The notes under the pieces: generated by a model
Database searches by the model: none
The model's input: the letters and a program-made list of their open reading frames with translations, nothing else
What the model was told of the DNA's origin: nothing
DNA from: Escherichia coli
GTDB lineage: Bacteria > Pseudomonadota > Gammaproteobacteria > Enterobacterales > Enterobacteriaceae
NCBI RefSeq assembly: GCF_036507355.1
Contig: NZ_AP027877.1
DNA length: 64,000 bases
Strand: one strand, 5' to 3'
In this document: positions 1 to 35,777 of the stretch, piece by piece
Position numbering within the stretch: the stretch's first letter is position 1
How the letters are laid out: every line of letters begins with the position of its first letter
Translations under genes and position numbers: made by a program

Positions 1-217
1 GCAGCTCCGTATCGTCGTCAGGAATGCTGGCATCGGGCTTTACCTCGTACAGCGCCCCCTCTACCTGATCAATCAACCGCTGTTGGTCATTTTGCGCCAT
101 ATTGCGAAGCATTGCAGTGACGATAATCTCCAAAGCTTCTACCTGCGCACACAGTTCTTTCGACTCTTCTTCTTTTTGGGCAAGCTTAAATAACAACTCA
201 GCAATGAGATTTTTCAT
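1..217 (-). CDS. iraP: Anti-adaptor protein IraP, 5' part only (C-terminus lies beyond the window start)
   Basis: Reverse-strand translation from the ATG at 217..215 reads [42 protein letters not shown]..., matching IraP as recalled; divergent from ddlA. Confidence 0.8.
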
Positions 218-679
218 GTCTGTATTTCCTTATCCAAAGTATGGAGAAGTTAACATTATATTTCACAACTTCATAGTGTCTGGAAGTATTATTTTTATGA
301 CAAAGGAAATACTTTGCGCAAATATTTTTTGTTTGATTACCAGCGAAACGTTTCTCTTATTTAAATAATTACCCACACAAAATATAGGCTTTTAATTATC
401 AACCTTTATTATAAATAAAAGTTATGAAATATATTCTCTTCGTTAACTTATAATTAAGAGAAAAAAACTCACCGCATGGCCATTTAAGCCAGGAATAAAT
501 TAGCTTCCCGTTCATCATTTTTGTGATCTTGCGCACATCTTTGAGATAACGCACTTTCTTCACCAGTACGTTGCACGCTTTGTCAGCAGAAGATTGCAAC
601 AATCTTTCAGAAGGCCGCGAATCCCCCGTTTTGTCGTGGTAATGTATGCACTTTGTGTTAGACGGGATAGGTTTATAAG

Positions 680-1774
680 ATGGAAAAACTGCGGGTAGGA
701 ATCGTTTTTGGTGGTAAATCAGCGGAACATGAAGTGTCTCTGCAATCGGCAAAAAACATTGTCGATGCCATTGATAAAAGTCGCTTCGACGTTGTGCTGC
801 TGGGCATTGATAAACAAGGGCAATGGCACGTCAGCGATGCCAGCAATTATCTGCTAAATGCAGACGATCCTGCCCATATTGCGTTGCGCCCTTCGGCGAC
901 CAGCCTCGCCCAGGTGCCAGGTAAACATGAGCATCAGCTTATCGACGCGCAAAACGGTCAGCCGTTGCCGACGGTGGATGTCATTTTCCCGATTGTCCAC
1001 GGTACGCTGGGCGAAGATGGTTCCTTGCAGGGAATGCTGCGGGTCGCCAATTTACCGTTTGTAGGTTCTGATGTTCTGGCTTCAGCAGCCTGTATGGATA
1101 AAGATGTCACCAAACGTCTGCTACGCGATGCCGGGCTGAACATTGCGCCATTTATTACCCTGACGCGCGCTAATCGTCACAACATCAGTTTTGCCGAAGT
1201 GGAGTCTAAACTGGGGTTACCACTGTTTGTAAAACCGGCTAATCAGGGCTCTTCTGTTGGTGTCAGCAAAGTAACCAGTGAAGAACAGTACGCAATTGCC
1301 GTCGATCTGGCGTTCGAGTTCGATCATAAAGTGATCGTTGAGCAAGGGATCAAAGGTCGTGAGATCGAATGCGCAGTTCTGGGCAACGACAATCCGCAAG
1401 CCAGCACCTGTGGCGAGATCGTACTCACCAGCGATTTCTATGCCTACGACACCAAGTACATTGACGAAGATGGCGCGAAAGTGGTAGTTCCGGCAGCCAT
1501 TGCGCCAGAAATCAACGATAAGATCCGGGCGATTGCCGTTCAGGCTTATCAGACGTTGGGATGCGCAGGCATGGCGCGTGTAGACGTGTTTTTAACCCCA
1601 GAGAACGAAGTGGTGATCAACGAGATCAACACCCTGCCTGGCTTCACCAACATCAGTATGTATCCGAAGCTGTGGCAAGCCAGCGGTTTGGGTTACACCG
1701 ATCTGATCACACGTTTGATTGAACTGGCGCTGGAGCGTCACGCTGCGGATAACGCATTGAAAACCACAATGTAA
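680..1774 (+). CDS. ddlA: D-alanine--D-alanine ligase A
   Basis: 364-aa [23 protein letters not shown]... with ATP-grasp ligase features; length and sequence as recalled for DdlA. Confidence 0.95.
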
Positions 1775-1780
1775 TATTTT

Positions 1781-1820
1781 AACGCCCGATAATATTCTTA
1801 TTGGGCGTTTTCAGTTTCTT
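1781..1820 (+). terminator. Probable intrinsic terminator after ddlA
   Basis: Imperfect hairpin aacgcccgataa / ttattgggcgtt (1781-1809, loop tattc) followed by a T-rich run tttcagtttctt; overlaps the yaiZ stop on the other strand. Confidence 0.45.
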
Positions 1821-2010
1821 CATCGCGACGACGAATAATCAACCCCGCCAGCCAGAAACTAATCACCCACGTCACCAGACCGACGGCATAGGTCTGCCAA
1901 CCTTTTGCTTCAAATCCCAGTAACCCCACCACGCCATTAAGAATGAATATAAGGCCAATGGCGAACGCATAGTAGTGCCAGTCACGGCGGATTTTTACAG
2001 GCAGATTCAT
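1798..2010 (-). CDS. yaiZ: Small inner-membrane protein YaiZ (DUF2754-like)
   Basis: 70-aa hydrophobic product MNLPVKIRRDWHYYAFAIGLIFILNG... starting at an internal Met of the 114-aa track ORF. Confidence 0.75.
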   Translation of the reverse strand: MNLPVKIRRDWHYYAFAIGLIFILNGVVGLLGFEAKGWQTYAVGLVTWVISFWLAGLIIRRRDEETENAQ

Positions 2011-2269
2011 GGCTGCTCCGTTAACGAAAAACAACATCCTTGCATATTCTGCAACAACCGTCTGTGGTGTAGACAACATTTTCGCAATTGTTAATAAATT
2101 TAACTTAAAGTTGCTATTTTGTGACTCGCAACGAAGATTCACGCTTCGGGAATATTCCCAACATCAATTTACCATGATTCTGATATTGACAATCTAAATG
2201 ACCTGTCAGACTTGCCATAAGCCGCTGGTATCACACCAGAAGAGAAGCAGATGACTTCCGGAGGTTTTT

Positions 2270-2578
2270 ATGGCTGATTTCACCCTGTCAAAATCGCTGT
2301 TTAGCGGAAAATATCGCAATGCCTCTTCAACGCCTGGCAACATTGCCTATGCGTTGTTTGTGCTGTTTTGCTTTTGGGCTGGGGCGCAATTGCTGAACCT
2401 GTTAGTGCATGCGCCCGGCGTCTATGAGCGTTTAATGCAGGTCCAGGAAACAGGTCGCCCACGGGTGGAAATTGGTTTAGGTGTCGGCACCATTTTCGGG
2501 CTGATCCCGTTTTTAGTAGGCTGCCTCATTTTTGCAGTGGTGGCGCTATGGCTGCACTGGCGACATCGCCGCCAGTAA
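2270..2578 (+). CDS. yaiY: Small inner-membrane protein YaiY (DUF2755-like)
   Basis: 102-aa [23 protein letters not shown]... with two hydrophobic segments; divergent from yaiZ. Confidence 0.8.
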
Positions 2579-2636
2579 GATTTACGTTGCCAGATACGGC
2601 CTAAAACGCCTTATCTGGCATGACATTCCTGTTTAA

Positions 2637-3731
2637 TCACTGTTTCATACAACGCGCCCGCCGTTCGTCTACGCGCTTCGCAAACCAGGCCGTAGTCAGG
2701 TTGCGGGTGATTTTCGGGCTTTCCAGTTGAATGCCAGGCAACATTTCGCGGGGGAGTGATTTACCCGTTTTCGCTTCGGCAAGTTGATAAACTTTCTTGT
2801 ACAGCGCCGTCTCCTCAAAAGAGAAGCTGTCACCTTTCTCTAGCTGACGACGAATTTCGCTGTCGCTCATCCCCAGTTTTGCCGCCAGTTTGCGCGTTGC
2901 CAGTTCGGTTTTCCCGGGTTCTTTACTGTCGTAACGAATTAAATCACCGTCCAGTGCCAGCTTCACGCCGCTGGCCTTACTGACCGCGTTCTGAAACGCG
3001 GCATTACGGCTGGCATACCAGCCAGCGTTAAAATCAGCAAAACGGTATATCGGTGCGCTATAACTGGCGGGATAATTCAGTAAATGGTAAGTACCAAACC
3101 ACAACCCGCCGCGGCGACTAAAGACTTCCTGACGGACTGTACCGTCCATTTTCCACGGATACCCTTTGGTATGCTGTTCGGCAAAAGCAATGCTGACCTG
3201 CATCGGCCCACCGGTGCGCACCGGATTAAGCGAACCAAACAGCGTCTGCCCCATTGGCACCATGCTGATCAGATCGTCAAAAATCGCGCTCAATTGCTTT
3301 TCTGTACGCACCGAATCTAACCGTTCGCTATAACTTTTGCCGTTTGGCGATTTGATTTTTAGCGCGGTATGAACCAGAAAAGCAGGAATGTGCATCCGTT
3401 CAGCACGACGGTCAATCTCTTGCCAGGCGATCTTGCTTAAGCCCGGAACGGCCGGATCTGCCTGATAATTTGACTCCTGCTGCGCCATCGCCAGCACCGA
3501 GCAGACGTTTTCCAGCGTCGGTGCCAGCCCCTGACTTTCAAAGGTGATGGCGAGATCTTTCGCCCAAGCATCGCGGTCTTTCACGCTCGCAGGCATCTTC
3601 TGCCGCACGACGCTCGCCACATCTATCTCTTTTTCGCCCTTTTTCAACGGTTGCGGAGCCCGACTACTACACCCCGCTAAAACCAGAACCGCCAACAATG
3701 ACAGCGAAGATAGAGGATTGACGCGCGACAT
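2637..3731 (-). CDS. yaiW: Outer-membrane lipoprotein YaiW
   Basis: 364-aa ORF with lipoprotein signal MSRVNPLSSLSLLAVLVLAGCSS (lipobox LAGC); immediately downstream of sbmA. Confidence 0.85.
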   Translation of the reverse strand: MSRVNPLSSLSLLAVLVLAGCSSRAPQPLKKGEKEIDVASVVRQKMPASVKDRDAWAKDLAITFESQGLAPTLENVCSVLAMAQQESNYQADPAVPGLSKIAWQEIDRRAERMHIPAFLVHTALKIKSPNGKSYSERLDSVRTEKQLSAIFDDLISMVPMGQTLFGSLNPVRTGGPMQVSIAFAEQHTKGYPWKMDGTVRQEVFSRRGGLWFGTYHLLNYPASYSAPIYRFADFNAGWYASRNAAFQNAVSKASGVKLALDGDLIRYDSKEPGKTELATRKLAAKLGMSDSEIRRQLEKGDSFSFEETALYKKVYQLAEAKTGKSLPREMLPGIQLESPKITRNLTTAWFAKRVDERRARCMKQ

Positions 3732-3743
3732 TACTTCTCCTTT

Positions 3744-4964
3744 TTAGCTCAAGGTATGGGTTACTTCCTGAATTTTGTCACCATCCAGCTCATGTTCAAA
3801 GCTGCGCAGACGTTTGTAGATAGACATCAACTCAACCAGTGTGGTCCATGAGTTAATCAGGTACTGGAAAGCACCGCGAACCTGACCAAAAACGTTGGTA
3901 ATCTGCGTCATCAGGCCGAGCGTAATCGTACCGGCAACAATTGACGGAAACAGCAAGAACAAACCGAAAACGTTATCGACCTGCAAATAGAGAATGCGAG
4001 CGATGTTGAAATACATATAGTGAAAATAGAGGCGGAAATAGTTTTTCCGTACGGCGCTAAACAGCTCGCGTACCGTTGGCGGCGTCGCGCGCGTGGCATC
4101 GTCTTCACCATAAACCAGCTCTTTACGGTAGGCAGCCTCTACACGCTGGTTTTTAAACTCCAGCCCCGGCAGTTTGATCCCTACCACTGCCAGCAATCCG
4201 GTCCCCATCAGCGACCAGACGATAGCGGCAATCACCAGACCATACGGAATGTGCCCGATAATCGGCAGCTCCGGCACATGCGCGGAGAGCGTTACCAGCA
4301 CCGGCAGGAAGGCGATCAACGTCATGATGGCGTTGATAAAACTGACCCCCATATTCTCCAGCGTTGAAGCAAAACGCATGGTGTCTTCCTGCACACGCTG
4401 TGCGGCGCCTTCGATATGACGCAGTTGTTGCCAGTTCGCCATGTAATATTCGTTCATCGCCGTACGCCAGCGGAACACGTAGTGACTGACAAAGAAGTTA
4501 TTCAGCACACTGATCACTACCGCGATCAGCGCAATCCCCAGAAAGACGCCCACTTCGCGGTAAAATTGTTCGATAGTGACTTTATGCGGCGAACTTAGCG
4601 CGGTTTGAATCAGATCATAGAACGGTGCATACCAGGCGTTGACGGCAACCCCGACTTCCACCAAAAACCAGGTGACGAAGATGATCAGTGCAGTACCGAG
4701 TATTGACCAGTATTGCCAACGGTGCGGGCTGTAGATAAACCAGAACAATGCAAAAAGTCCTACGCAAACAATGTAGTAAGCGTAAAAAATCAGGAAATCC
4801 AACGACCAGAAACGCGCGGCGCTAATCGGGATCTGCCCGGAAGCGCCGGTGATACGCGCCACCCAGTCACCCCCACCGGCTTGCCAGAAGATAACGGCAA
4901 TCAATGCCCAAACAAAGGCCGAGAGAAAAAACGTTCCCGGCTTTGGGAAAAAAGACTTAAACAT
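3744..4964 (-). CDS. sbmA: Peptide antibiotic/microcin transporter SbmA
   Basis: 406 aa from [31 protein letters not shown]...; polytopic membrane protein; track ORF has a 2-codon upstream extension. Confidence 0.95.
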
Positions 4965-5315
4965 ATGCACTCCTGCTAACTTCTTATCGTTTTAACAACT
5001 GCTGTGTATTAACCGCATGACCGCTACAAAGCGTCAGCCAAATGAAACCGCCCATTGTGACCCATAGCAAGGCGCTTAGTTCGCCAGCCTGGCCATAAGA
5101 ATTGTTTCGACGGATTTCACAAACCAAAGATTGTTTACATAAGCGGATTAACACGCGCAGGATCACAAATGCAGGCATTGGTGAGCAGGAAAAAGATCGT
5201 GTTTACGCGCCGTTACGTTTTTAACACTATTATTGCACTAATGCGCCCTTTGCAATCCATCAATGAGTAGTATAAATACGCTCAGTTACCTTCATTCAAT
5301 TTATGGACACCACCG

Positions 5316-6473
5316 TTGAAACGTAGTCTGCTTTTTTCTGCCGTGCTGTGTGCGGCGTCATTGACCTCCGTCCATGCGGCGCAGCCGATCACTGAACCGG
5401 AGTTTGCCTCTGATATTGTCGATCGTTATGCCGATCATATTTTTTACGGCAGCGGTGCCACGGGGATGGCGCTGGTTGTTATCGACGGTAACCAGCGCGT
5501 CTTTCGCAGTTATGGCGAAACGCGACCTGGTAATAACGTTCGCCCGCAGCTGGATTCGGTCGTGCGTATTGCTTCCCTCACCAAGCTAATGACCAGTGAG
5601 ATGCTGGTGAAATTGCTCGACCAGGGGACCGTGAAGTTAAACGATCCGCTAAGTAAATATGCTCCGCCAGGCGCACGCGTGCCAACCTACAATGGGACGC
5701 CCATTACGCTGGTCAATCTGGCAACCCATACCAGCGCCCTGCCCCGTGAACAGCCCGGTGGCGCGGCACATCGTCCGGTGTTTGTCTGGCCAACGCGCGA
5801 GCAACGCTGGAAATACCTTTCTACGGCGAAGCTGAAAGCCGCGCCAGGCAGTCAGGCGGCGTACTCTAACCTTGCGTTCGACCTGCTGGCAGATGCACTG
5901 GCGAATGCGTCCGGCAAGCCTTATACCCAGTTGTTTGAAGAGCAGATTACCCGTCCATTGGGGATGAAAGACACCACCTACACCCCCTCACCGGATCAGT
6001 GCCGCCGTTTAATGGTTGCTGAGCGCGGTGCCAGTCCGTGCAATAACACGCTGGCGGCAATTGGCAGCGGCGGCGTCTATTCCACGCCTGGCGATATGAT
6101 GCGCTGGATGCAGCAGTATTTGTCATCTGATTTTTATCAGCGCAGTAACCAGGCAGATCGCATGCAGACGTTGATTTATCAGCGCGCGCAGTTTACGAAA
6201 GTGATTGGCATGGATGTCCCCGGCAAAGCGGATGCGCTTGGTTTAGGCTGGGTATATATGGCCCCGAAAGAGGGTCGTCCGGGGATTATTCAGAAGACAG
6301 GTGGTGGTGGCGGTTTCATTACCTATATGGCGATGATCCCGCAGAAGAATATTGGCGCGTTTGTGGTGGTCACTCGTTCGCCGTTGACGCGCTTTAAAAA
6401 TATGAGCGATGGCATCAATGATCTGGTGACCGAGCTAAGCGGGAATAAACCGTTGGTTATCCCCGCGTCCTGA
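5316..6473 (+). CDS. ampH: Penicillin-binding protein AmpH (class C beta-lactamase-like DD-peptidase)
   Basis: 385-aa ORF with TTG start, signal peptide MKRSLLFSAVLCAASLTSVHA and serine-hydrolase motif ASLTK. Confidence 0.9.
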   Translation: MKRSLLFSAVLCAASLTSVHAAQPITEPEFASDIVDRYADHIFYGSGATGMALVVIDGNQRVFRSYGETRPGNNVRPQLDSVVRIASLTKLMTSEMLVKLLDQGTVKLNDPLSKYAPPGARVPTYNGTPITLVNLATHTSALPREQPGGAAHRPVFVWPTREQRWKYLSTAKLKAAPGSQAAYSNLAFDLLADALANASGKPYTQLFEEQITRPLGMKDTTYTPSPDQCRRLMVAERGASPCNNTLAAIGSGGVYSTPGDMMRWMQQYLSSDFYQRSNQADRMQTLIYQRAQFTKVIGMDVPGKADALGLGWVYMAPKEGRPGIIQKTGGGGGFITYMAMIPQKNIGAFVVVTRSPLTRFKNMSDGINDLVTELSGNKPLVIPAS

Positions 6474-6663
6474 TTAATACTCTGAAGGCAAACGGTTGAT
6501 AGCGACCAGTTTGCCTTTATTCATTTCGATATAGCCGCCTTTACGCAAAGCAGCGAGAACTTCTGCGACGACAGAACGCGATATGCGTGTACGTTGATGG
6601 ATATAATTCATCACACCAATACGTGATCGCAATTCTTCATTCCAGTCAATCATTGATAATAAC

Positions 6664-6722
<59 letters not shown>

Positions 6723-6856
6723 AATTCTATTTTGCCAGGCTAACCAGTAAAAAGCGTCTCGCCAGAGTTGATTTTGTTCAATAAGCGTAATGGTTTGTTT
6801 GGCTGGTAGATGATATCCCGTACAATTTCCTTCTGATATTAATTTGTATGGTATAT

Positions 6857-6865
6857 CGTTTTTCA
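6857..6865. repeat. IS1 target-site duplication, left copy (CGTTTTTCA)
   Basis: 9 bp immediately left of the IS1 inverted repeat, identical to 7634..7642. Confidence 0.85.
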
Positions 6866-6920
6866 GGTGATGCTGCCAACTTACTGATTTAGTGTATGAT
6901 GGTGTTTTTGAGGTGCTCCA

Positions 6921-7196
6921 GTGGCTTCTGTTTCTATCAGCTGTCCCTCCTGTTCAGCTACTGACGGGGTGGTGCGTAACGGCAAAAGCACCGCCGGACA
7001 TCAGCGCTATCTCTGCTCTCACTGCCGTAAAACATGGCAACTGCAGTTCACTTACACCGCTTCTCAACCCGGTACGCACCAGAAAATCATTGATATGGCC
7101 ATGAATGGCGTTGGATGCCGGGCAACAGCCCGCATTATGGGCGTTGGCCTCAACACGATTTTACGTCACTTAAAAAACTCAGGCCGCAGTCGGTAA
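6921..7196 (+). CDS. insA: IS1 protein InsA
   Basis: 91-aa [43 protein letters not shown]... (zinc-finger/HTH InsA). Confidence 0.9.
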
Positions 7197-7618
7197 CCTC
7201 GCGCATACAGCCGGGCAGTGACGTCATCGTCTGCGCGGAAATGGACGAACAGTGGGGCTATGTCGGGGCTAAATCGCGCCAGCGCTGGCTGTTTTACGCG
7301 TATGACAGGCTCCGGAAGACGGTTGTTGCGCACGTATTCGGTGAACGCACGATGGCGACGCTGGGGCGTCTTATGAGCCTGCTGTCACCCTTTGACGTGG
7401 TGATATGGATGACGGATGGCTGGCCGCTGTATGAATCCCGCCTGAAGGGAAAGCTGCACGTAATCAGCAAGCGATATACGCAGCGAATTGAGCGGCATAA
7501 CCTGAATCTGAGGCAGCACCTGGCACGGCTGGGACGGAAGTCGCTGTCGTTCTCAAAATCGGTGGAGCTGCATGACAAAGTCATCGGGCATTATCTGAAC
7601 ATAAAACACTATCAATAA
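7115..7618 (+). CDS. insB: IS1 InsB reading frame (transposase made as InsAB' by -1 frameshift)
   Basis: 167-aa -1-frame ORF overlapping the insA 3' end; slippery A6C motif TTAAAAAACTC at about 7171-7180. Confidence 0.85.
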
Positions 7619-7633
7619 GTTGGAGTCATTACC

Positions 7634-7642
7634 CGTTTTTCA
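7634..7642. repeat. IS1 target-site duplication, right copy (CGTTTTTCA)
   Basis: 9 bp immediately right of the IS1 end, identical to 6857..6865. Confidence 0.85.
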
Positions 7643-7821
7643 TTAAACCATCAGCCAGCCCCATAATATAAGGAGCCTGGGTAATACCGATAAGTACGTT
7701 TTCTTCTCTACGCAGAGAGATAACGCCCTCTAAAATAACGAAAGTATCTTCGCTATTGACATCACTGGAAAATATAACTTGCTTTTCATTATTAAACTCG
7801 AAGCGCGTACCGTATCTGGAC

Positions 7822-7939
<118 letters not shown>

Positions 7940-7961
7940 TATTTCTTCGGAGTGAAGAATA

Positions 7962-8132
<171 letters not shown>

Positions 8133-8150
8133 TGAATCGCCACGGATAAT

Positions 8151-8963
8151 CTAGACACTTCCGAGCCGTTGATAATACTGGTTTTCATATTCTGTCGGTG
8201 ACATCTGATCGCTGGAACCATGCCGACGCTTACTGTTATAAAACATTTCGATGTAATCAAAAATATCGCTGCGGGCTTCTTCCCGCGTTCCGTAGATCTT
8301 TTTCTTTATCCGTTCGCGTTTCAACAACTGGAAAAAGCTTTCTGCAACCGCATTATCATGGCAGTTACCGCGACGGCTCATGCTGCCATCCAGGCCGTGT
8401 GATTTCAGGAACGACTGCCACTCATGGCTTGTGTACTGACTGCCCTGATCCGAATGAACCAGCACCTGTTTTTGGGGATTACGGCGCCATACAGCCATCA
8501 GCAGTGCGTTCAGGACAATGTCCTTTGTCATCCGGGATTGCATGGACCAGCCGATAATTTTGCGTGAGAACAGATCAACAACCACGGCAAGATACAGCCA
8601 GCCTTCGTGGGTCCTGATGTAGGTTATGTCCGTTACCCAACGCTTATCCGGAGCATCCGGATTGAACTGTCGCTGGAGCCTGTTGGGCGACACGATACTG
8701 GCCTCGCCTTTACGTGCCCGCGGGCTCCGGTATCCGACCTGAGCCTTTATCCCGACACGTTTCATCAGTCGCCAGACTCTGTTCACTCCGCACTGTTGCC
8801 CGCTGTCCCGCAGATCCAGATGGATTTTGCGATAACCATAGACGCATCCCGATTCCAGCCAGAACTGTTTAATCTGCCCTGTCAGCCTCAGGTCTGCCTG
8901 ATGGCGTTGTGAATGCGGCTGCTGAAGCCAGGCGTAAAAACCACTGGGATGAACATCCAGCAC
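8151..8963 (-). CDS. IS3-family transposase OrfB (DDE integrase domain)
   Basis: 270-aa ORF with DDE-type motifs (...WVTDITYIRTHEGWLYLAVVVDLFSRKIIGW..., ...LVHSDQGSQYTS..., ...AVAESFFQLLKRE...). Confidence 0.9.
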   Translation of the reverse strand: MLDVHPSGFYAWLQQPHSQRHQADLRLTGQIKQFWLESGCVYGYRKIHLDLRDSGQQCGVNRVWRLMKRVGIKAQVGYRSPRARKGEASIVSPNRLQRQFNPDAPDKRWVTDITYIRTHEGWLYLAVVVDLFSRKIIGWSMQSRMTKDIVLNALLMAVWRRNPQKQVLVHSDQGSQYTSHEWQSFLKSHGLDGSMSRRGNCHDNAVAESFFQLLKRERIKKKIYGTREEARSDIFDYIEMFYNSKRRHGSSDQMSPTEYENQYYQRLGSV

Positions 8964-9019
8964 CCGACAGAGCAGGCGAACAGGCCAGCAACAGGTGTTG
9001 TCACGGATAAAGGCGTACC

Positions 9020-9304
9020 TCAGTCGGACAGCTTTGCGAAGTACGCCGCGGCTTTTTTTAATATGTCCCGTTCGTCGGTAACCCGCTTCAGCTCTTTCTG
9101 GAGACGGCGGATCTCGGCCTGAGCATCTGACTGTTCTTTATTAGCGGAAGAATCCGGACCGTACTTCTTTATCCAGGCGTAAAGGCTGTGGGTGGTGATA
9201 TCGAGACGTGTTGCAACGCTGGCAACAGAATAACCGCGATCAACAACCTGTTTGACTGCTTCAATTTTAAACTCTTCGGGATAACGCTTACCGCTCATGG
9301 GCAC
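9020..9304 (-). CDS. IS3-family OrfA (HTH/leucine-zipper protein)
   Basis: 94-aa ORF MPMSGKRYPEEFKIEAVKQVVDRGYSVASVATRLDITTHSLYAWIKKYG... Confidence 0.9.
   Translation of the reverse strand: MPMSGKRYPEEFKIEAVKQVVDRGYSVASVATRLDITTHSLYAWIKKYGPDSSANKEQSDAQAEIRRLQKELKRVTDERDILKKAAAYFAKLSD
9040..9062 (-). other. Probable programmed -1 ribosomal frameshift site of the IS3-family element
   Basis: An A7 run on the coding strand (T7 at 9053-9059 on +) sits in the 0 frame as ttA AAA AAA Gcc near the OrfA 3' end, as in IS3-family OrfAB frameshift windows. Confidence 0.6.
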
Positions 9305-9361
9305 CTCTCTTTAAGCCATCTTAAATGACTCTGAGGTGTCTGTTAAACCCGTGGCGATTCA

Positions 9362-9699
9362 CCATGAATCAGGGAGTTGCTGATGTTCAACTGGTTTGTT
9401 GTTCCATCAGTAAAGTCATGATTCAGGTAATATGTAGAGATAGCCCCGTTAACAGTGTCACCATTAAAGGTGGTATCGAAATCACCGTTTGTGTTGTTAT
9501 AGTAGACAAAGCCACTATAATTCACATAGTTACCATCTACAGTACCCGGTGCATCCATATTGCTCCAGTCAAGAGCAGTAGTTGGATTGTCGTAATAAGT
9601 CCAGGTGTCATAAGTAGTTGCATTAGCCTGAGAGGTGATAGCCAGAGTGCAAGCCAATGCTAATTGTGATACTACAAGTTTCTTTTTCCAGGAGTGCAT
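9362..9699 (-). pseudogene. 5' remnant of an autotransporter-like gene (yaiT-like), signal peptide and start of passenger
   Basis: ORF begins MHSWKKKLVVSQLALACTLAITSQANA (Sec signal) followed by a Tyr/Asn/Thr/Asp-rich segment; the frame runs into the IS terminal repeat and stops. Confidence 0.55.
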
Positions 9700-10223
9700 T
9701 TGTCATCCCTCCTCAGGGACGTAATAAGTTGATCCATCAATTATCAATGCATAGAAAACATCTTATGTTTCGCGTTTACGATTATGCGGCGTTATAGAGG
9801 AATGGTTCAATTATTCTTTCCCCTAAGTCCGATTGCGGACATATATAAAAATATCTATACGCACAAAGAATAAGTTGACAAAAACACTGCATTTCAACAC
9901 GTTAATGAAATCATTAATTTTGAATTATAGATCCTGAAAATACCAAAACAACAAATCAGACAAATAATTTATCAATAAACAATGAACTTTAAGTAATTCA
10001 ATTTTTGACAGTTCAACCAAATTAGCAAAAATAATAACCAGCACCTATAAATAAAAATTAAAAATATTTTCAGTGAATATGAAATTATTGCTATTTCTAT
10101 TACAAAGATGTCCTGGCCTCTCTTCCATTCTCTTCTTGTCAACATCGCGACAACTTTCGTAAAACATCCCCACCCTGCTTCAGGTATACTATGCCCCTCG
10201 ATTCCACAAACATCAGGCAGACC

Positions 10224-14719: not shown

Positions 14720-15021
14720 GATTGTCTGCTCCCCTGTCTTGTTATGGGAGCAGTATTTCGTTGCGGGTCAGTTTGATAAAGGAATTAAAAGGTCTTGTTA
14801 AGAACAAAGCGTTTTTAGAAAAAAATCGGCAATGGTTAGCGAGTTTGCGCATTTTGCGGTTTTGGCGAACGTATCCCGCCGGTTCACAAGCCAGATAATA
14901 TGTGCGCGCTCCGGCAAATTATTGCCATTTTGTTACATCCATTCCATATCTGTCGCTGGTTGATTGCCAGCGCCGCGCCGTGATGCATGATAGGAGAATT
15001 AGATAATAAGAGAAGAAAAGT

Positions 15022-15651
15022 ATGATTCGGGTAGTGCTGGTGGATGACCATGTGGTGGTGCGCTCTGGCTTCGCACAATTACTCTCTCTGGAAGACGATC
15101 TGGAGGTCATTGGTCAGTACAGTAGTGCCGCGCAGGCATGGTCGGCATTAATCCGTGATGACGTCAATGTTGCCGTCATTGATATTGCCATGCCGGACGA
15201 AAACGGCCTCAGTTTGCTTAAGCGCCTGCGTGCACAAAAACCGCAATTTCGCGCCATTATTCTTAGCATTTATGACGCGCCAACCTTTGTGCAAAGCGCG
15301 CTGGATGCCGGTGCCAGCGGGTATTTAACCAAACGCTGTGGGCCGGAAGAGTTAGTGCAGGCGGTGCGCTCGGTCGGGCTGGGCGGGCATTATCTCTGTG
15401 CCGATGCGATTCGGGCTTTACGCGGCGGCGGGCAATCCGCCCAGGCGCTGGAAATTCTCACCCCGCGAGAACGTGAAGTGTTTGATTTACTTGTCAAAGG
15501 AGACAGCGTTAAAGAGATCGCCTTTAAACTCGAACTCAGTCATAAAACGGTACATGTGCATCGCGCCAATGTGCTGGGAAAACTGAACTGCCATAGCACC
15601 ATTGAACTGGTACATTTTGCGCTCGACCACCATCTGCTGGCGGGGCATTAA
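15022..15651 (+). CDS. NarL/FixJ-family response regulator, UhpA paralogue
   Basis: 209-aa ORF MIRVVLVDDHVVVRSGFAQLL... (receiver domain) with a C-terminal LuxR-type HTH (...VKEIAFKLELSHKTVHVHRANVLGKL...); similar to UhpA as recalled but distinct. Confidence 0.85.
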   Translation: MIRVVLVDDHVVVRSGFAQLLSLEDDLEVIGQYSSAAQAWSALIRDDVNVAVIDIAMPDENGLSLLKRLRAQKPQFRAIILSIYDAPTFVQSALDAGASGYLTKRCGPEELVQAVRSVGLGGHYLCADAIRALRGGGQSAQALEILTPREREVFDLLVKGDSVKEIAFKLELSHKTVHVHRANVLGKLNCHSTIELVHFALDHHLLAGH

Positions 15652-17192
15652 TGTCGCGCAATCTTCGTCATTGGGTGATTTCGCTGTTTATTGTGCTGGC
15701 CTGGGGAACCGGCTGGCTGATGCTGTGGACGCTCAGCTTTTATCTGACCAATAACGGTCAACAGGCGGTGTTGTTTCTCCCGCAGGGAGTTTATCTCGCC
15801 CTTGTTATTTTGCTCTCTCGCCGCTACTGGCCTGCGTTGGTGCTCCCCCCTTTGCTGATGATGTTCTGGCTCCATAGTGAACAGCTATTGAACGGTTATC
15901 TCATGCTGGCAACGCCGATTATTAGCCTGTTTCCTGTCCTCCTTGCGCAAAACTTCTGGCACCGTTTTCCACTTTACTGGCAGCGTCTGACGTTGCTGTT
16001 AGCCACTGTCACGGCAGCTTCATTGTTGAATACCGCCCTGCTCTCCCCTTTTATGTCAGGCCCAATAATGCTGCCGGGTTTGACCTCATTTACCGGCGGC
16101 GTATTACTGACGCCGTTTGTCTATCTTATCTTTGAGTTTCTGCGCCAGCAGCATCGCTACCAGCTCCTGGGACTCGATACGCATAATCCCCCCTTGCGTA
16201 CCTCTTTAATCATCTGGTGTAGCCTGTTTTTTATTATTGGTATCGGCACTCAGATGGTGCTGTCACCTGAAATTGAACGTCTGCTGTTGATCGTGGTCTT
16301 TTTGCCCAATGTGGTGATGGCGTGGAAATTTGGCTGGCAAGGTGGCGTACTCTCCGGGCTTTTGGGCAGCATGATGATCACCATCGCCCGCCAGATTGGC
16401 GTGGGCTTTAGTAACCTGGTGGAGCTGGAGATTTTCCTCGCGACCCAGGCCTTGCTGGGAATTGGCCTGGGCATTGCCATCAGTCGCCAGCAACATCTGG
16501 CGCTAAACCTGCACCATTACCGACAACGGCTGGAGGCCGAGCTGGCAGCGCGGCGGGCATTGGCGGAAAAGCTGATCCACACCGAGGAGGACACGCGAAA
16601 AAACCTGGCGCGAGAGCTGCACGACGAAATCGGTCAGAACATCACCGCCATTCAGATCCAGTCGCAACTGGTGAAGCGGGCGCGTGATCCGGCGCAAATT
16701 CAATCCGCAGCCAGCCAAATCAATGAGCTCGCCCGCCGCATTCATCTCTCCACCCGCCAATTGCTGCGCCAGTTGCGGCCTCCCGCGCTTGATGAACTGA
16801 CATTTCGCGAAGCGTTGTTGCATCTGATTAATGAATTTGCCTTTAGTGAACGCGGCATTCATTGCCAGTTTGCCTATCAACTGAACTCCACACCAGAAAA
16901 CGAAACGGTGCGCTTTACCTTGTATCGGTTATTACAGGAGTTGCTCAATAACGTCTGTAAACACGCCGAAGCCAGCGAAGTGACGATTATCCTGCGCCAG
17001 CAGGGAGAGGTATTGCATCTGGAAGTCAGCGACAACGGTGTGGGGATCGCCAGCGGGAAAATGGCCGGATTTGGCATTCAGGGGATGCGTGAGCGCGTCA
17101 GCGCCCTGGGCGGCGACTTAACGCTCGAAAAACAGCACGGCACGCGGGTAATTGTTAACTTGCCCACATTTTTGCAACAAATCGCCGGATAA
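15651..17192 (+). CDS. Sensor histidine kinase, UhpB paralogue (polytopic N-terminal domain, HisKA_3, HATPase)
   Basis: 513-aa ORF; about 8 hydrophobic segments in the N-terminal half, H-box ELHDEIGQ, G-box DNGVGI; start overlaps the regulator stop (TAATG). Confidence 0.85.
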   Translation: MSRNLRHWVISLFIVLAWGTGWLMLWTLSFYLTNNGQQAVLFLPQGVYLALVILLSRRYWPALVLPPLLMMFWLHSEQLLNGYLMLATPIISLFPVLLAQNFWHRFPLYWQRLTLLLATVTAASLLNTALLSPFMSGPIMLPGLTSFTGGVLLTPFVYLIFEFLRQQHRYQLLGLDTHNPPLRTSLIIWCSLFFIIGIGTQMVLSPEIERLLLIVVFLPNVVMAWKFGWQGGVLSGLLGSMMITIARQIGVGFSNLVELEIFLATQALLGIGLGIAISRQQHLALNLHHYRQRLEAELAARRALAEKLIHTEEDTRKNLARELHDEIGQNITAIQIQSQLVKRARDPAQIQSAASQINELARRIHLSTRQLLRQLRPPALDELTFREALLHLINEFAFSERGIHCQFAYQLNSTPENETVRFTLYRLLQELLNNVCKHAEASEVTIILRQQGEVLHLEVSDNGVGIASGKMAGFGIQGMRERVSALGGDLTLEKQHGTRVIVNLPTFLQQIAG

Positions 17193-17264
17193 CCAGGAAA
17201 AAGTCTTAGGTATCCCGGATTTTCTCTCATCCCCTTTCACTTTCATTTTCATATAGTCAGCAAC

Positions 17265-18581
17265 ATGGAGACAACCATGCACGCGCGTTCAGCGAGAGAA
17301 ATTAATCAATGCTACCGGACATTACGTCCGCGATTGCTGATGTGCATGATTATTGGCTACGCCGCATTTTATCTGACGCGAAAAAGCGTGAATTACGTCC
17401 TTCCGGCGCTACAAACCGACCTCGGACTGGATAAAGGCGACATTGGCCTGCTGGGTTCGCTGTTTTATCTCAGCTACGGATTGTCGAAATTTACCGCCGG
17501 ACTGTGGCATGACAGCCACGGACAACGCGGTTTTATGGGCGTCGGCTTGTTCGCCACCGGGTTATTGAACGTGGTGTTTGCCTTTGGCGAATCACTTACG
17601 CTTCTGCTTGTGGTCTGGACACTGAACGGTTTTTTTCAGGGCTGGGGATGGCCACCGTGTGCCCGCTTGCTGACCCACTGGTACTCACGCAATGAGCGCG
17701 GTTTCTGGTGGGGCTGCTGGAATATGTCGATCAACATTGGCGGAGCGATTATTCCGCTGATTAGCGCCTTTGCCGCCCACTGGTGGGGCTGGCAGGCCGC
17801 GATGCTGACACCGGGGATAATCAGCATGGCATTAGGGATCTGGTTAACGCTACAACTCAAAGGCACGCCCCAGGAAGAGGGATTACCGACAGTTGGTCAC
17901 TGGCGTCACGATCCGCTGGAGTTACGTCAGGAACAACAAAGTCCGCCGATGGGGCTGTGGCAAATGTTGCGCACCACCATGCTGCAAAATCCGCTGATCT
18001 GGCTACTGGGCGTCTCTTATGTACTGGTTTATGTGATCCGGATTGCGCTTAACGACTGGGGCAATATCTGGCTGACGGAAAGCCACGGTGTCAACCTGCT
18101 CAGCGCCAACGCCACGGTAATGCTGTTTGAAGTGGGCGGCTTACTCGGCGCGTTATTTGCCGGATGGGGATCGGATTTGCTGTTTAGCGGGCAACGAGCG
18201 CCAATGATTTTGCTGTTCACGTTGGGGTTGATGGTGTCAGTCGCCGCACTGTGGCTGGCACCGGTTCATCACTACGCTCTGCTGGCAGTGTGCTTTTTTA
18301 CCGTGGGCTTTTTCGTCTTTGGCCCACAAATGCTGATTGGACTTGCGGCGGTGGAGTGTGGGCACAAAGCTGCGGCGGGTTCAATCACCGGATTTCTCGG
18401 CCTGTTCGCTTACCTTGGCGCGGCGCTGGCAGGCTGGCCGCTGTCGCTGGTCATCGAACGCTACGGCTGGCCGGGAATGTTCAGTTTACTCTCGGTCGCC
18501 GCAGTACTTATGGGTTTACTGCTGATGCCGTTACTGATGGCGGGCATCACCACCACTCACGCTCGAAGGATAAAACAATGA
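17265..18581 (+). CDS. MFS protein, UhpC/UhpT-like (sugar-phosphate sensor or transporter)
   Basis: 438-aa 12-TM-like ORF adjacent to the UhpA/UhpB-like pair. Confidence 0.8.
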   Translation: METTMHARSAREINQCYRTLRPRLLMCMIIGYAAFYLTRKSVNYVLPALQTDLGLDKGDIGLLGSLFYLSYGLSKFTAGLWHDSHGQRGFMGVGLFATGLLNVVFAFGESLTLLLVVWTLNGFFQGWGWPPCARLLTHWYSRNERGFWWGCWNMSINIGGAIIPLISAFAAHWWGWQAAMLTPGIISMALGIWLTLQLKGTPQEEGLPTVGHWRHDPLELRQEQQSPPMGLWQMLRTTMLQNPLIWLLGVSYVLVYVIRIALNDWGNIWLTESHGVNLLSANATVMLFEVGGLLGALFAGWGSDLLFSGQRAPMILLFTLGLMVSVAALWLAPVHHYALLAVCFFTVGFFVFGPQMLIGLAAVECGHKAAAGSITGFLGLFAYLGAALAGWPLSLVIERYGWPGMFSLLSVAAVLMGLLLMPLLMAGITTTHARRIKQ

Positions 18582-19609
18582 AAATGACCTTTACCTCTAC
18601 TCTGATTGCTTCTGCCGTTGCGCTGGCGACTTTAACGGGTGCCGCGCAGGCAAAAGGCCGGCTGGTGGTCTATTGCAGCGCCACCAATGAAATGTGTGAG
18701 GCCGAAACCAAAGCGTTTGGCGAGAAATATGATGTAAAAACCTCGTTTATCCGCAACGGTTCCGGAAGCACCCTGGCAAAAGTCGATGCTGAAAAGAAAA
18801 ACCCCCAGGCTGACGTCTGGTACGGCGGCACTTTAGACCCGCAATCGCAGGCTGGCGAGATGGGCCTGCTACAGGCGTATAAATCCCCTAACCTTGAGCA
18901 GATCATGGAGAAATTCCGCGATCCGGCAAAAGTGAAAGGGAATCTGTCCTCTGCCGTTTATGTGGGGATCCTCGGTTTTGGCGTAAACACCGATCGTCTG
19001 AAAGAGAAAAACCTGCCGGTGCCGAAGTGCTGGAAAGATCTCACCAAACCGGAATATAAAGGCGAAATTCAAATTGCCGATCCGCAAAGTTCCGGTACTG
19101 CCTACACCGCCCTGGCTACTTTTGCGCAGCTGTGGGGGGAAGATCAGGCCTTTGATTATCTAAAACAACTGAACGCCAACGTCTCTCAGTACACCAAATC
19201 AGGCATAGCCCCGGCACGTAACGCCGCCCGTGGCGAAACGGCGATTGGTATTGGCTTCCTGCATGACTACTCGCTGGAAAAAGAACAGGGCGCGCCGCTG
19301 GAGTTGATTTCCCCGTGTGAAGGTACAGGCTACGAAATTGGCGGCGTCAGCATTCTGAAAGGCGCGCGCAACCTCGACAACGCCAAACTGTTTGTGGACT
19401 GGGTATTATCAAAAGAAGCGCAGGAACTGGCATGGAAGAAAGGGAAGTCTTATCAGATCCTGACCAATACCACCGCCGAAACGTCGCCAAACTCACTGAA
19501 GCTCGACGACCTGAAATTAATCAACTACGACATGGACAAATACGGTTCCACGGATGTTCGTAAGGCATTGATTAATAAATGGGTTAGCGAAGTAAAAATG
19601 GGTAAATAA
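18578..19609 (+). CDS. afuA: ABC transporter periplasmic binding protein, AfuA/FbpA-like
   Basis: 343 aa from MKMTFTSTLIASAVALATLTGAAQA (signal peptide); the track ORF 18251..19609 is an upstream alternate-start extension. Confidence 0.85.
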   Translation: MKMTFTSTLIASAVALATLTGAAQAKGRLVVYCSATNEMCEAETKAFGEKYDVKTSFIRNGSGSTLAKVDAEKKNPQADVWYGGTLDPQSQAGEMGLLQAYKSPNLEQIMEKFRDPAKVKGNLSSAVYVGILGFGVNTDRLKEKNLPVPKCWKDLTKPEYKGEIQIADPQSSGTAYTALATFAQLWGEDQAFDYLKQLNANVSQYTKSGIAPARNAARGETAIGIGFLHDYSLEKEQGAPLELISPCEGTGYEIGGVSILKGARNLDNAKLFVDWVLSKEAQELAWKKGKSYQILTNTTAETSPNSLKLDDLKLINYDMDKYGSTDVRKALINKWVSEVKMGK

Positions 19610-19677
19610 ACCCGCATTAGGCGCATTTGCCGGGTGCAGCGCAGACGCCTGCCCCGGCCAACCATACCGGAACTGCT

Positions 19678-21756
19678 ATGTCACAGACACTTGCACTCCA
19701 TCCCGTGAAAAAGCGGGATGCGATTTTCCTTTGGGTTTTGCTGGGCTGGCTGGCATTTATACTGTTGCCGAGCTGGAGCCTCGATTATGGCCTGCTGGAG
19801 TCCACGAGTGATGAGATCCTCGAGGCTTATGGCTGGTCGCATTTTAATATCAGCTGGCTGTGGTATTTGTTACCGAGTCTGTTGCTGGTTCGCCCGTTTC
19901 GTGAGGCCACACGCGAACAGCGTAGTCGTCATTATTTTGATGCCGGCTGGGCATTGCTCTGTATGGCGTTTATCGTCATCAGCGCCACCGTGGTTGGACG
20001 CGGTTTAGGCTACGCCGCCATCGTGCTGTTTGTCGAACTAGGCGCGATTATGACGCTGGCCTTAACCCGCCTCGAATGGCTGGGTGGCGACCGCTTCGTG
20101 ATCGGCTCACTGATTGCGATTGTGGCGCTGATTGGCATTTTTATCGTCTGGCCGAGCATCGCCATTTTTATCCCGATGTTCACCAACGACGCGGGAGAGT
20201 TCGCCCCGCTGGCGTTTATGACCGTGCTCTCGCAGGCACATATTGTTCAGGTGATCGTCAACTCTATCGTCTTGTCGATAGCGGTGGGGATAGGCTGTAC
20301 TTTCTTCGGCCTGGTGCTGGCGATTTATACCACGCGCATCGCTAAACGCAGCGCCATTATTGGTCGCATCTTTTCCATTTTGCCCATCGTTACGCCACCG
20401 TTTGTGGTCGGCTTAGGCGTGACGCTCATGATGGGGCGCTCCGGCTATGTTACGGAATTTATGGTGGAGTGGTTTGGGCTGACCAACACCAACTGGCTGT
20501 ACGGTTTTACCGGGATCTGGCTGGCACAGGTTCTGGCATTCACGCCAATGGCATTTATGATCCTCGACGGGGCCATTAAAACCATTCATCCCTCGCTGGA
20601 AGAGGCCTCCTACACCCTGCGCGCCAGCCGCTGGCAAACCTTTAACGGCGTGTTTGTGCCGTTGTTGAAGCCCGCACTCGCCAATGCCTTTTTAATCGTC
20701 GTGGTACAGTCACTGGCTGATTTCAGTAACCCGCTGGTACTTGGCGGTAACTTCGACGTACTGGCGACGCAAATTTACTTCTATATTACCGGCTCGCAGC
20801 TGGATTATCAGGCCGCCAGCACCCTTGGCGCTTTCCTGCTGCTGTTCTCGCTGCTGGTGTTCTGCATCCAGTATATGTGGATTGGTAAACGCTCTTACGT
20901 CACGGTTTCCGGCAAATCCTACCGTGGCGACGTCCAGCCGCTACCGGTCACCCTGGTGTGGAGCGTGGTCGCCATACTTGCGATATGGATTGCCTTTAAC
21001 GCCCTGCTCTACGGCAGCATTTTCTACGGCAGCTTCACGGTGAACTGGGGCGTGGACTACACCCTGACGCTGGATAACTTTATCAAGCTATTTGGTCAGG
21101 GAATGAGCGACGGCGCCTGGCCTTCACTGCTGGATACCCTGCTCTACGCCGGGATTGCCGCTCCCATTACCGCTATCTTTGGCCTGCTCATCGCCTGGGT
21201 GGTGGTGCGTCAACAATTCAAAGGCAAAAAGACCATCGAGTTCACCACCATGCTGTGCTTTGCCGTACCGGGTACGGTGGCGGGCGTTTCGTATATTCTT
21301 GCCTTTAACAGCGCTCCGGTTTATCTCACCGGAACGGCGGCAATTGTGATTATCTCGATGGTGATGCGTAACGTTCCGGTGGGTATTCGCGCCGGGATTG
21401 CGGGTCTGGGGCAGATCGACAAATCGCTGGATGAAGCCTCACTCAGCCTGCGCGCGGGTTCACTGCGAACCATTACGCACATTTTACTGCCGCTGCTGCG
21501 CCCGGCCATTCTCTCGGCCCTGATCTACAGCTTTGTGCGGGCCATCACGACGGTCAGCGCCATCGTCTTTCTCGTCACGCCGGACACCCGCGTGGCAACC
21601 GCCTACATTCTTAACCGCGTTGAAGACGGCGAATATGGCGTAGCCATCGCCTATGGTTCGATTCTGATCGTGGTGATGCTGGCGATTATTTTCCTCTTTG
21701 ACTGGCTGATCGGAGAAGCTCGTATCTCCCGTTCTAAAGCCAAAAACCAGGCGTAA
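19678..21756 (+). CDS. afuB: ABC transporter permease, AfuB/FbpB-like (duplicated transmembrane domain)
   Basis: About 692 aa from [24 protein letters not shown]...; large polytopic permease. Confidence 0.85.
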
Positions 21757-22814
21757 TGGAGCGCACTATGAGTCAGAAAAATTTTGTTGAACTGCGCAAC
21801 GTCACTAAACGATTCGGCAGTAATACGGTTATCGACAATATCAATCTCACCATTCCACAAGGGCAAATGGTGACGCTGCTCGGTCCTTCCGGCTGTGGCA
21901 AAACCACCATTTTGCGTCTGGTTGCCGGGCTGGAAAAACCGAGCGAAGGGCAAATTTTTATTGATGGCGAAGATGTCACGCATCGTTCCATTCAACAGCG
22001 CGATATCTGCATGGTGTTTCAGTCATACGCTCTGTTCCCGCATATGTCGCTGGGTGAAAACGTTGGCTACGGGCTGAAGATGCTTGGCGTGTCGCGTAGC
22101 GAAGTGAAACAGCGGGTGAAGGAGGCGCTGGCAATGGTGGATCTGGAAGGCTTCGAGGACCGCTATGTCGATCAGATTTCCGGTGGTCAGCAACAGCGTG
22201 TGGCACTGGCCCGCGCGTTGATCCTCAAGCCAAAGGTGCTGCTGTTTGATGAGCCGTTAAGTAACCTCGATGCCAACCTGCGCCGCAGTATGCGCGATAA
22301 GATCCGCGAGCTGCAAAAGCAGTTTAATATCACGTCGCTCTACGTCACTCACGATCAAAGTGAAGCTTTCGCGGTGTCCGACACTGTGCTGGTGATGAAT
22401 AAAGGTCACATCATGCAGATTGGCTCACCGCAGGATCTCTATCGTCAGCCAGCCTCCCGATTTATGGCAAGTTTTATGGGCGACGCCAACCTGTTCCCGG
22501 CGAACTTTAGCGAAGAGTATGTCGATATCTACGGTTATCGCCTGCCGCGCGCGGCGCATTTCCCGGCGCAAGGTAGCGGCACCGTCGGCGTTCGCCCGGA
22601 AGCCATCACCTTAAGCAATCACGGCGAAGAGAGTCAGCGTTGTGTTATTCGCCATGTCGCCTACATGGGGCCGCAGTACGAAGTGACCGTAGAGTGGCAT
22701 GGACAGGAGATTTTATTACAAGTAAACGCCACCCGTTTACAGCCCGATATTGGTGAGCACTATTACCTCGAAATCCATCCTTACGGGATGTTTGTTTTAG
22801 CGGATGCGGCATAA
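21756..22814 (+). CDS. afuC: ABC transporter ATP-binding protein, AfuC/FbpC-like
   Basis: 352-aa ORF with Walker [10 protein letters not shown], signature [14 protein letters not shown] and Walker B LLFDEP; the true start may be MSQKNF at 21768. Confidence 0.9.
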
Positions 22815-22896
22815 AAATAGCACATAAACGGTCCCCATCTGTCTTGAGGGACCGTTCACCTGGTTAGGCTTCGGACAACAATTATTCTCCAGTGTT

Positions 22897-27365: not shown

Positions 27366-27545
<180 letters not shown>

Positions 27546-34033: not shown

Positions 34034-34867
34034 ATGCAGAACAATGAGCAGACGGAATACAAAACCGTGCGCGGCTTAACCCGCGGTCTAATGTTATTAA
34101 ATATGTTAAATAAACTTGACGGCGGTGCCAGCGTCGGGCTGCTGGCGGAACTCAGCGGCCTGCATCGCACCACTGTGCGGCGACTGCTGGAGACGCTGCA
34201 GGAAGAGGGATATGTCCGGCGTAGTCCCTCCGATGATAGTTTTCGTCTGACCATCAAAGTGCGGCAATTAAGCGAAGGATTTCGTGACGAACAGTGGATT
34301 TCTGCACTGGCGGCCCCACTGCTGGGCGATCTGTTACGCGAAGTGGTATGGCCGACAGATGTGTCCACGCTGGATGTTGATGCAATGGTGGTACGCGAAA
34401 CCACCCACCGTTTCAGCCGCTTATCCTTTCACCGGGCAATGGTCGGGCGACGTTTGCCGCTTCTGAAAACCGCCTCGGGCCTTACCTGGCTGGCCTTTTG
34501 CCCGGAACAAGAACGCAAGGAATTAATCGAGATGTTAGCCTCCCGCCCCGGTGATGACTATCAACTGGCACGAGAACCGTTAAAGCTGGAAGCCATTCTG
34601 GCGCGCGCGCGCAAAGAGGGTTACGGACAGAACTACCGCGGCTGGGATCAGGAGGAGAAGATCGCCTCTATCGCCGTACCGCTGCGCAGTGAACAACGGG
34701 TGATTGGCTGTCTGAATCTGGTGTATATGGCGAGCGCAATGACCATCGAACAGGCCGCGGAAAAGCATCTTCCGGCACTACAACGGGTAGCAAAACAGAT
34801 CGAAGAAGGGGTTGAATCGCAGGCTATTCTGGTGGCCGGACGGCGAAGCGGCGTGCATTTACGCTAG
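34034..34867 (+). CDS. mhpR: IclR-family activator of the mhp operon
   Basis: 277 aa from MQNNEQTEYKTVRGLTRGLMLLNMLNKLDGGASVGLLAELSGLHRTTVRRLLETL... (IclR HTH plus effector domain). Confidence 0.9.
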   Translation: MQNNEQTEYKTVRGLTRGLMLLNMLNKLDGGASVGLLAELSGLHRTTVRRLLETLQEEGYVRRSPSDDSFRLTIKVRQLSEGFRDEQWISALAAPLLGDLLREVVWPTDVSTLDVDAMVVRETTHRFSRLSFHRAMVGRRLPLLKTASGLTWLAFCPEQERKELIEMLASRPGDDYQLAREPLKLEAILARARKEGYGQNYRGWDQEEKIASIAVPLRSEQRVIGCLNLVYMASAMTIEQAAEKHLPALQRVAKQIEEGVESQAILVAGRRSGVHLR

Positions 34868-34981
34868 TTACGCCAATGTGTAATTTGGCCCATTCTCATC
34901 GTTATTCGCCCATTTGCCCACATGCACAGCACGGGCTGCACGCTACGCTAATGACATCAATACTGTGATGTGGAGCAAATC

Positions 34982-35758: not shown

Positions 35759-35777
35759 TTCGGAGATAAAGAGTGTT

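Follow-up and report, generated by a model that had tools for sequence, protein, structure and literature searches.

A copy of IS1 lies between two matching 9-bp sequences in a 64,000-nt stretch of Escherichia coli DNA (contig NZ_AP027877.1; hereafter the window), and this arrangement raises the question of which gene the element interrupts, whether it arrived there by transposition, what would be left of the gene product and how old the resulting allele may be. A first reading made from the letters alone had proposed a recent simple transposition that inactivated yaiV. This gene (K-12 b0375) is now named iprA and is described as a "hydrogen peroxide resistance inhibitor". The explanation favored here, to which a probability of roughly 0.93 was assigned, is that an IS1A-type element transposed into the iprA coding sequence and probably abolished the function of the gene.

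The extent, ends and coding capacity of the element were examined by comparison with annotated IS1 copies, by inspection of its reading frames and by simulation of the frameshift. The features are as follows.

6866..7633, plus strand: IS1 element, IS1A type, 768 bp; full-length 100% match to annotated IS1A-family copies.
6866..6888, plus strand: IRL, the left terminal inverted repeat, GGTGATGCTGCCAACTTACTGAT; 18 of 23 positions agree with IRR.
6921..7196, plus strand: insA, 91 aa, GTG start; repressor and N-terminal transposase part (ORF list, NCBIfam).
6921..7618, plus strand: insAB′, predicted transframe transposase gene, 232 aa after a −1 shift (simulated shift).
7172..7178, plus strand: A6C slippery motif AAAAAAC, −1 programmed frameshift.
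7611..7633, minus strand: IRR, the right terminal inverted repeat, GGTAATGACTCCAACTTATTGAT read inward.

The element begins with GGTGATGCTGCC at 6866 and ends with GGAGTCATTACC at 7633, and this is the single copy of IS1 sequence in the window. Over its full length it is identical to many copies on RefSeq E. coli chromosomes and plasmids, which are labelled 'IS1-like element IS1A family transposase'. Its terminal repeats are the canonical imperfect 23-bp IS1 pair and start with GGT, a trait of the family. The insB frame overlaps insA, is open and ends at 7618; the simulated shift at A6C joined the two frames into InsAB′ without an internal stop, and insAB′, at 698 bp, is as long as the CDS that RefSeq annotates with a 'programmed frameshift' in IS1A copies. 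Both the insA and the insB parts matched the IS1 family transposase model NF033558 of NCBIfam, and the insA product matched the NCBIfam N-terminal part of the IS1 transposase and the IS1/IS1595 zinc-binding domain. IS1A/IS1R of E. coli K-12 and plasmid R100 have the same 768 bp, repeats, insA/insB′ organization, A6C motif, 232-aa InsAB′ and 9-bp duplication; the K-12 IS1A copy is identical at 766/768 positions, differing at IS1 positions 444 and 486, and occupies a different insertion site. The published anatomy of IS1 and the role of the A6C motif likewise agree with the element in the window (PMC12428005). Judged at the level of sequence, the element possesses each testable defining trait of the IS1 family, and the earlier description of a 768-bp IS1 with intact ends and insA/insB was borne out.

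The flanks of the element were compared with the corresponding uninterrupted region of K-12 MG1655. Two further features are needed here.

6857..6865, no strand assigned: target-site duplication CGTTTTTCA, left copy, 9 bp; K-12 has the 9-mer once.
7634..7642, no strand assigned: target-site duplication CGTTTTTCA, right copy, 9 bp; K-12 has the 9-mer once.

The empty site in MG1655 carries CGTTTTTCA as a single sequence at 394739-394747. Positions 1-6865 of the window align to K-12 401603-394739 (99.1% identity, no gaps) and positions 7634-8132 align to K-12 394747-394249, the two blocks sharing exactly 9 bp, which are CGTTTTTCA. Since the overlap is of exactly this size, the repeat represents duplication of the target rather than coincidence; the probability that a specified pair of 9-mers would agree by chance is 4^-9, or ∼4e-6. 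A 9-bp duplication is typical of IS1, and the perfect duplication that had been claimed for this site is confirmed in both copies.

The identity of the interrupted gene was investigated by removing IS1 and one copy of CGTTTTTCA, which restored a continuous ORF of 222 aa on the minus strand. The arithmetic of the fragments is exact: 286 nt and 392 nt, less the 9 nt duplicated, give 669 nt, equal to 222 codons plus the stop. The reconstructed protein is identical to K-12 YaiV/IprA at 221/222 residues, and likewise to O157 IprA (221/222), and between the reconstructed coding sequence (669 nt) and its O157:H7 TR01 counterpart there is a single nucleotide difference. The sole residue change relative to K-12 is N56S; the S56 variant was found in five other genomes compared, and N56S is a common natural polymorphism. 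Apart from IS1 itself, iprA in the window carries no lesion. Against the NCBIfam equivalog for IprA, NF008810, the reconstructed protein scored 457.5 bits (curated cut-off 359 bits) across profile positions 1-207 of 207. RefSeq and EcoCyc-derived annotation use a 207-aa form of iprA, which starts at MLSVVK, 15 codons downstream. An HTH_46 winged helix (Pfam PF15977) was identified at residues 153-220 of the reconstructed protein (E = 1e-30), together with a weak cNMP-binding-like Pfam match at residues 46-124. The order ampH-iprA-ehaB, with ehaB/yaiT upstream and ampH convergent, is that of K-12 and of RefSeq genomes. The sequence-only reading had suggested that yaiV would be continuous after excision, and had named a lack of similarity between the reconstructed ORF and intact YaiV proteins as the result that would count against it; alignment with the uninterrupted K-12 allele and the score against NF008810 showed both the continuity and the similarity. 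Each testable defining trait of IprA is present in the reconstructed gene, the hydrogen peroxide phenotype being taken from the literature.

What the insertion leaves of iprA can be given as three features, all on the strand opposite to insA.

6474..6865, minus strand: iprA 3′ fragment, codons 96-222 and stop, with HTH_46; internal GTG at 6707.
7629..7919, minus strand: truncated ORF, 95 native residues and Gly, TAA inside IRR; 96 aa, or 81 aa counted from MLSVVK.
7634..7919, minus strand: iprA 5′ fragment, codons 1-95 of the 222-aa frame and 1 nt; MLSVVK start at 7874.

IS1 is antiparallel to iprA and is inserted after codon 95 of 222, corresponding to codon 80 in the 207-aa numbering. Read from the iprA start, the frame now runs through ...LMKN and one Gly to a TAA within the right end of IS1. 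A stepwise origin can be proposed for this structure, in which a −1 ribosomal frameshift at A6C would yield the InsAB′ transposase, InsAB′ would link both ends of IS1 to target DNA cut with a 9-bp stagger at CGTTTTTCA (K-12 394739-394747), and gap repair would then double these 9 bp. The outcome is an iprA gene split into a 96-aa stub, which has no C-terminal DNA-binding domain, and a 3′ part severed from its promoter and start codon. IS1 prefers AT-rich DNA targets, and the AT-richness of iprA (39.9% GC, compared with 52.6% for the window) fits this preference. The 'simple transposition' proposed earlier describes only the end product, which is a simple insertion; this structure does not distinguish a cut-and-paste route from a copy-and-paste or replicative one with subsequent resolution, and IS1 has been argued to move mainly replicatively (PMC12428005).

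Since the 96-aa stub lacks the winged-helix domain and the 3′ fragment lacks a promoter and start codon, the iprA allele in the window is expected to be null. At most, the 77-aa HTH fragment might be weakly expressed from its internal GTG. No polar effect is expected, since iprA is followed directly by ampH, which is convergent. Deletion of iprA is reported to confer high resistance to oxidative stress, in the account of Herman et al. (2016, J Bacteriol 198:2166) relayed in PMC11952850, PMC11408624 and PMC12502779, and from this literature on the deletion the strain should show raised hydrogen peroxide resistance. The same regulator is lost in the iprA deletions of Salmonella Typhimurium and E. 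coli described in those accounts of Herman et al.; the mutants there are engineered clean deletions with measured phenotypes, whereas the allele in the window is a natural IS1 disruption known from its sequence.

Two explanations that would remove or alter the knockout were considered and found to be very improbable. An assembly artefact, in which a repeated IS1 copy was misplaced into iprA, gains some credence from the multicopy nature of IS1, which occupies a median of 11 places per genome, and from two homopolymer indels in lacA elsewhere in the window that could be sequencing errors. Both junctions are precise, however, and are accompanied by a perfect duplication of single-copy sequence of a kind that mis-joining does not make, and the same right junction occurs in independent public assemblies; the chance of an artefact is accordingly put close to nil. 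Only slightly less remote is the view that the main role of IS1 here is to supply a mobile promoter or regulatory element to a neighboring gene, and not to knock out iprA. IS1 ends can form hybrid promoters, and a 77-aa ORF with a complete HTH_46 domain persists downstream of IRL. Against this, a promoter scan for outward sites at the IS1 ends found three, compared with 2.6 expected by chance; ampH, beyond the 3′ fragment, is convergent, and ehaB, on the other side, is itself destroyed. Transposition of IS1 into iprA, with an expected null allele, remains the preferred reading.

The age of the allele was addressed by searching for its junctions in other genomes. Searches with chimeric flanks, in both IS1 orientations, found IS1 at the iprA site of the window in 0 of 5,426 complete RefSeq E. 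coli genomes; three apparent one-piece RefSeq matches to the site proved to be insertions lying 11 bp left or 6 bp right of it. An exact 40-mer of the left junction had no match in GTDB species representatives or JGI metagenome contigs. Look-ups of the 96-aa stub, of a frameshifted lacA product and of a 33-aa ORF at the junction returned no match, and the AmpH allele was too widespread to be informative. Exact look-up of the junction-specific 81-aa stub did identify seven short public contigs, including an NCBI draft (GCA_050026955.1, contig JBAOPD010000107.1), Logan assemblies SRR27314789 and ERR7528808, and ENA metagenome assemblies ERZ27283197, ERZ8158335 and ERZ28018877. All six of the contigs examined have the identical right junction, ...ATGAAAAACG joined to GGTAATGACTCC, at the same base, with IS1 in the same orientation, and end inside IS1. 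Relative to the window they carry other alleles at two standing polymorphisms, 7940 and 7968, which lie ∼300 bp from the junction; ehaB, in which 2 of 113 nt differ, is intact in these contigs and largely deleted in the window. The presence of the same right junction on a different flanking haplotype suggests either an older circulating allele or a site that was hit again. An older iprA::IS1 allele circulating in a lineage, inherited or imported by homologous recombination and with the same structure and knockout, is a serious contender at somewhat below even odds: the stub recurs in the seven contigs with identical junction and orientation wherever examined, and flank differences would be expected if the hypervariable ehaB flank had recombined after a single old insertion. 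Weighing against it, the left junction was absent from the complete RefSeq genomes, GTDB representatives and JGI metagenome contigs searched, the contigs of the seven samples stop within IS1, short of the left junction, and an independent second hit explains the haplotype equally well, other IS1 events lying within 3-18 bp of the site. The earlier term 'recent' needs qualification; a recent insertion is plausible and would agree with the perfect duplication, with an IS1 of consensus type and with an otherwise undamaged iprA, but given the right junction on another haplotype in public contigs the event may be older.

Insertion of IS1 into iprA was found to have occurred repeatedly. Among RefSeq complete genomes, IS1 was located in or near iprA in 20 genomes in the orientation seen in the window and in 35 in the opposite orientation, and 24 of these were mapped. 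At least 15 independent simple insertions in iprA were identified, covering both orientations; every one is bounded by a separate duplication of 8 or 9 bp. The inserted variants across RefSeq were IS1A, IS1B and IS1X4-like. Two more insertions are accompanied by adjacent deletions, in N18-04097 and in WS4437A-1, the latter deleted through to hemB. Several events cluster around the site in the window: the deletion endpoint of N18-04097 lies 3 bp away, the insertion of ECCTRSRTH03 6 bp to the right and that of PSS-16 11 bp to the left. Within the searched neighborhood, IS1 lies inside iprA, and not in ampH or ehaB, in 18 of the 20 same-orientation genomes, which the preference of IS1 for AT-rich DNA explains, the neighboring genes being richer in GC (ampH, 55.4%). 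The iprA region is also a target for ISKpn26 (IS5-like), with two RefSeq matches, and in CP026786.1 and CP061527.1 (4.37-4.39 Mb) a divergent IS1-like element occupies another iprA site, with a further IS1 copy at the ehaB end. Several NCBI assemblies have iprA split without any IS, an N-terminal ORF of 107-123 aa preceding the 77-aa HTH fragment; an ORF for this fragment is recorded in 2,350 blocks of the sequence collection.

The other RefSeq iprA::IS1 alleles, which include those of strains SLK172, GDSC2BY4G, L9, 98203, N25, GmM062, 1424KP, LR-06, YY76-1, PSS-16, ECCTRSRTH03, PEC41 and 19KM1766N, resemble that of the window in the gene affected, in the 8- or 9-bp duplication and in the annotation of the two halves as partial pseudogenes. 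All of them differ from it in position, in orientation or in both.

Since this recurrence could be taken as a sign of a hot spot or of selection, the same query design was applied to two control neighborhoods that are likewise AT-rich and dispensable. IS1 was found in 53 genomes at lacA/lacY, a number inflated by HB101-type strains, and in 16 at yahL; no clear excess for iprA over these controls was apparent, and the idea of a hot spot or of selection was not retained. The lacA search returned the laboratory strains HB101, RR1, ET12567 and a Dam/Dcm strain with IS1 inside lacY, beside lacA; the annotated features there include lacA, IS1A and a gene labelled only 'MFS transporter', and this is presumably the classical lacY1 allele. 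It is possible but unsupported, and we consider it unlikely, that loss of iprA is adaptive, with IS1 hits kept by selection for resistance to oxidative stress and not arising as neutral accidents. Such selection would be consistent with the number of independent insertions and deletion-associated events among the 5,426 genomes, with the ISKpn26 insertions, with the point-mutation pseudogenes in other assemblies and the wide occurrence of the 77-aa ORF, with the concentration of same-orientation IS1 inside iprA, and with the oxidative-stress phenotype reported for the deletion in the accounts cited above. The control counts are nevertheless of the same order of magnitude as those for iprA (53 and 16 against 20 and 35), the low GC content of iprA relative to ampH means that target preference alone accounts for the local concentration, and ∼99% of complete genomes retain intact iprA. 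Equally doubtful is a broader proposal, that E. coli and Shigella lose iprA repeatedly for a gain in particular niches and that CGTTTTTCA is a true IS1 hot spot, struck independently on two or more haplotypes with IS1 in one and the same orientation.

Transposition of IS1 into iprA, as favored here, is therefore best regarded as a real and correctly interpreted finding of an ordinary sort. Knockouts of non-essential genes by IS1 are textbook events, and the allele belongs to an already known kind: iprA::IS1 alleles are present in public genomes as partial pseudogenes, and the same junction is present in public assemblies, where it has never been described. A literature search found no paper mentioning both yaiV and IS1. 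For the present genome, the two iprA fragments should be annotated as one IS1-disrupted pseudogene, and the strain is predicted to be without IprA and hence possibly better able to tolerate hydrogen peroxide. The iprA::IS1 junction could be used as a lineage or PCR marker. The many independent IS1 hits in iprA offer a modest lead on parallel gene loss, which the controls suggest mostly reflects the taste of IS1 for AT-rich dispensable DNA, and significance beyond the annotation of this genome is small.

The remainder of the window was compared with K-12 and with other genomes. Its order, ddlA-yaiW-sbmA-ampH-iprA::IS1-ehaB′-hemB-tauDCBA ... mhp-lacIZY-cyn-cod-prp-yahK, is the K-12 order reversed, at 96-99% identity, and the best identity to any complete E. 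coli genome over 21.8 kb was 99.1%. IS1 and one other element are the only two IS copies present. The other, an IS3-family element of 1,229 bp (8133-9361) with terminal repeats TGAATCGCCACGG and orfB at 8151-8963 on the minus strand, lies inside ehaB/yaiT, where it replaces ∼2.4 kb of the gene and leaves remnants of ∼170 bp on the 3′ side (7962-8132) and ∼340 bp on the 5′ side (9362-9700). It is flanked by GTT and CCA; this lack of a 3-bp duplication suggests an IS-mediated deletion or recombination. In K-12 the ehaB/yaiT gene is occupied by another element, IS3B, inserted elsewhere in it.

Several segments of the window have no counterpart in K-12. An 8-kb segment at 14757-22882 occupies the place where yaiS-yaiP-yaiX::IS2-yaiO stands in K-12; its predicted products are a regulator, a sensor kinase and an MFS receptor of UhpA/UhpB/UhpC type, as well as the binding protein, fused permease and ATPase of an ABC transporter, and occurs in several hundred RefSeq E. 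coli genomes. Two genes absent from K-12 lie between mhpR and lacI (34863-36698), of which one (34970-35758) encodes a metal-dependent-hydrolase-like protein and the other (35778-36731) an AraC-family regulator that is FtrA-like and has a DJ-1-like domain. The lacI, lacZ and lacY genes are intact; given this and the presence of just two IS copies in the window, a Shigella origin was considered and set aside. Compared with K-12, the lacA gene (42418-43027) lacks one base in a C-run and another in an A-run (near 42618 and 42782) and is consequently spread over three frames, either as a genuine pseudogene or through homopolymer sequencing error. Beyond yahK, positions 61156-64000 have no K-12 alignment, K-12 having yahJ and the following genes there; sugar-type ABC transporter permeases are encoded on the minus strand at 61085-62071 and 62038-63009. 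An Rfam scan of the window identified only two naRNA4 (REP-derived nucleoid-associated RNA) matches above the gathering score, at 27393-27470 on the plus strand and 49306-49382 on the minus strand, which are ordinary REP elements unrelated to the IS1 insertion.
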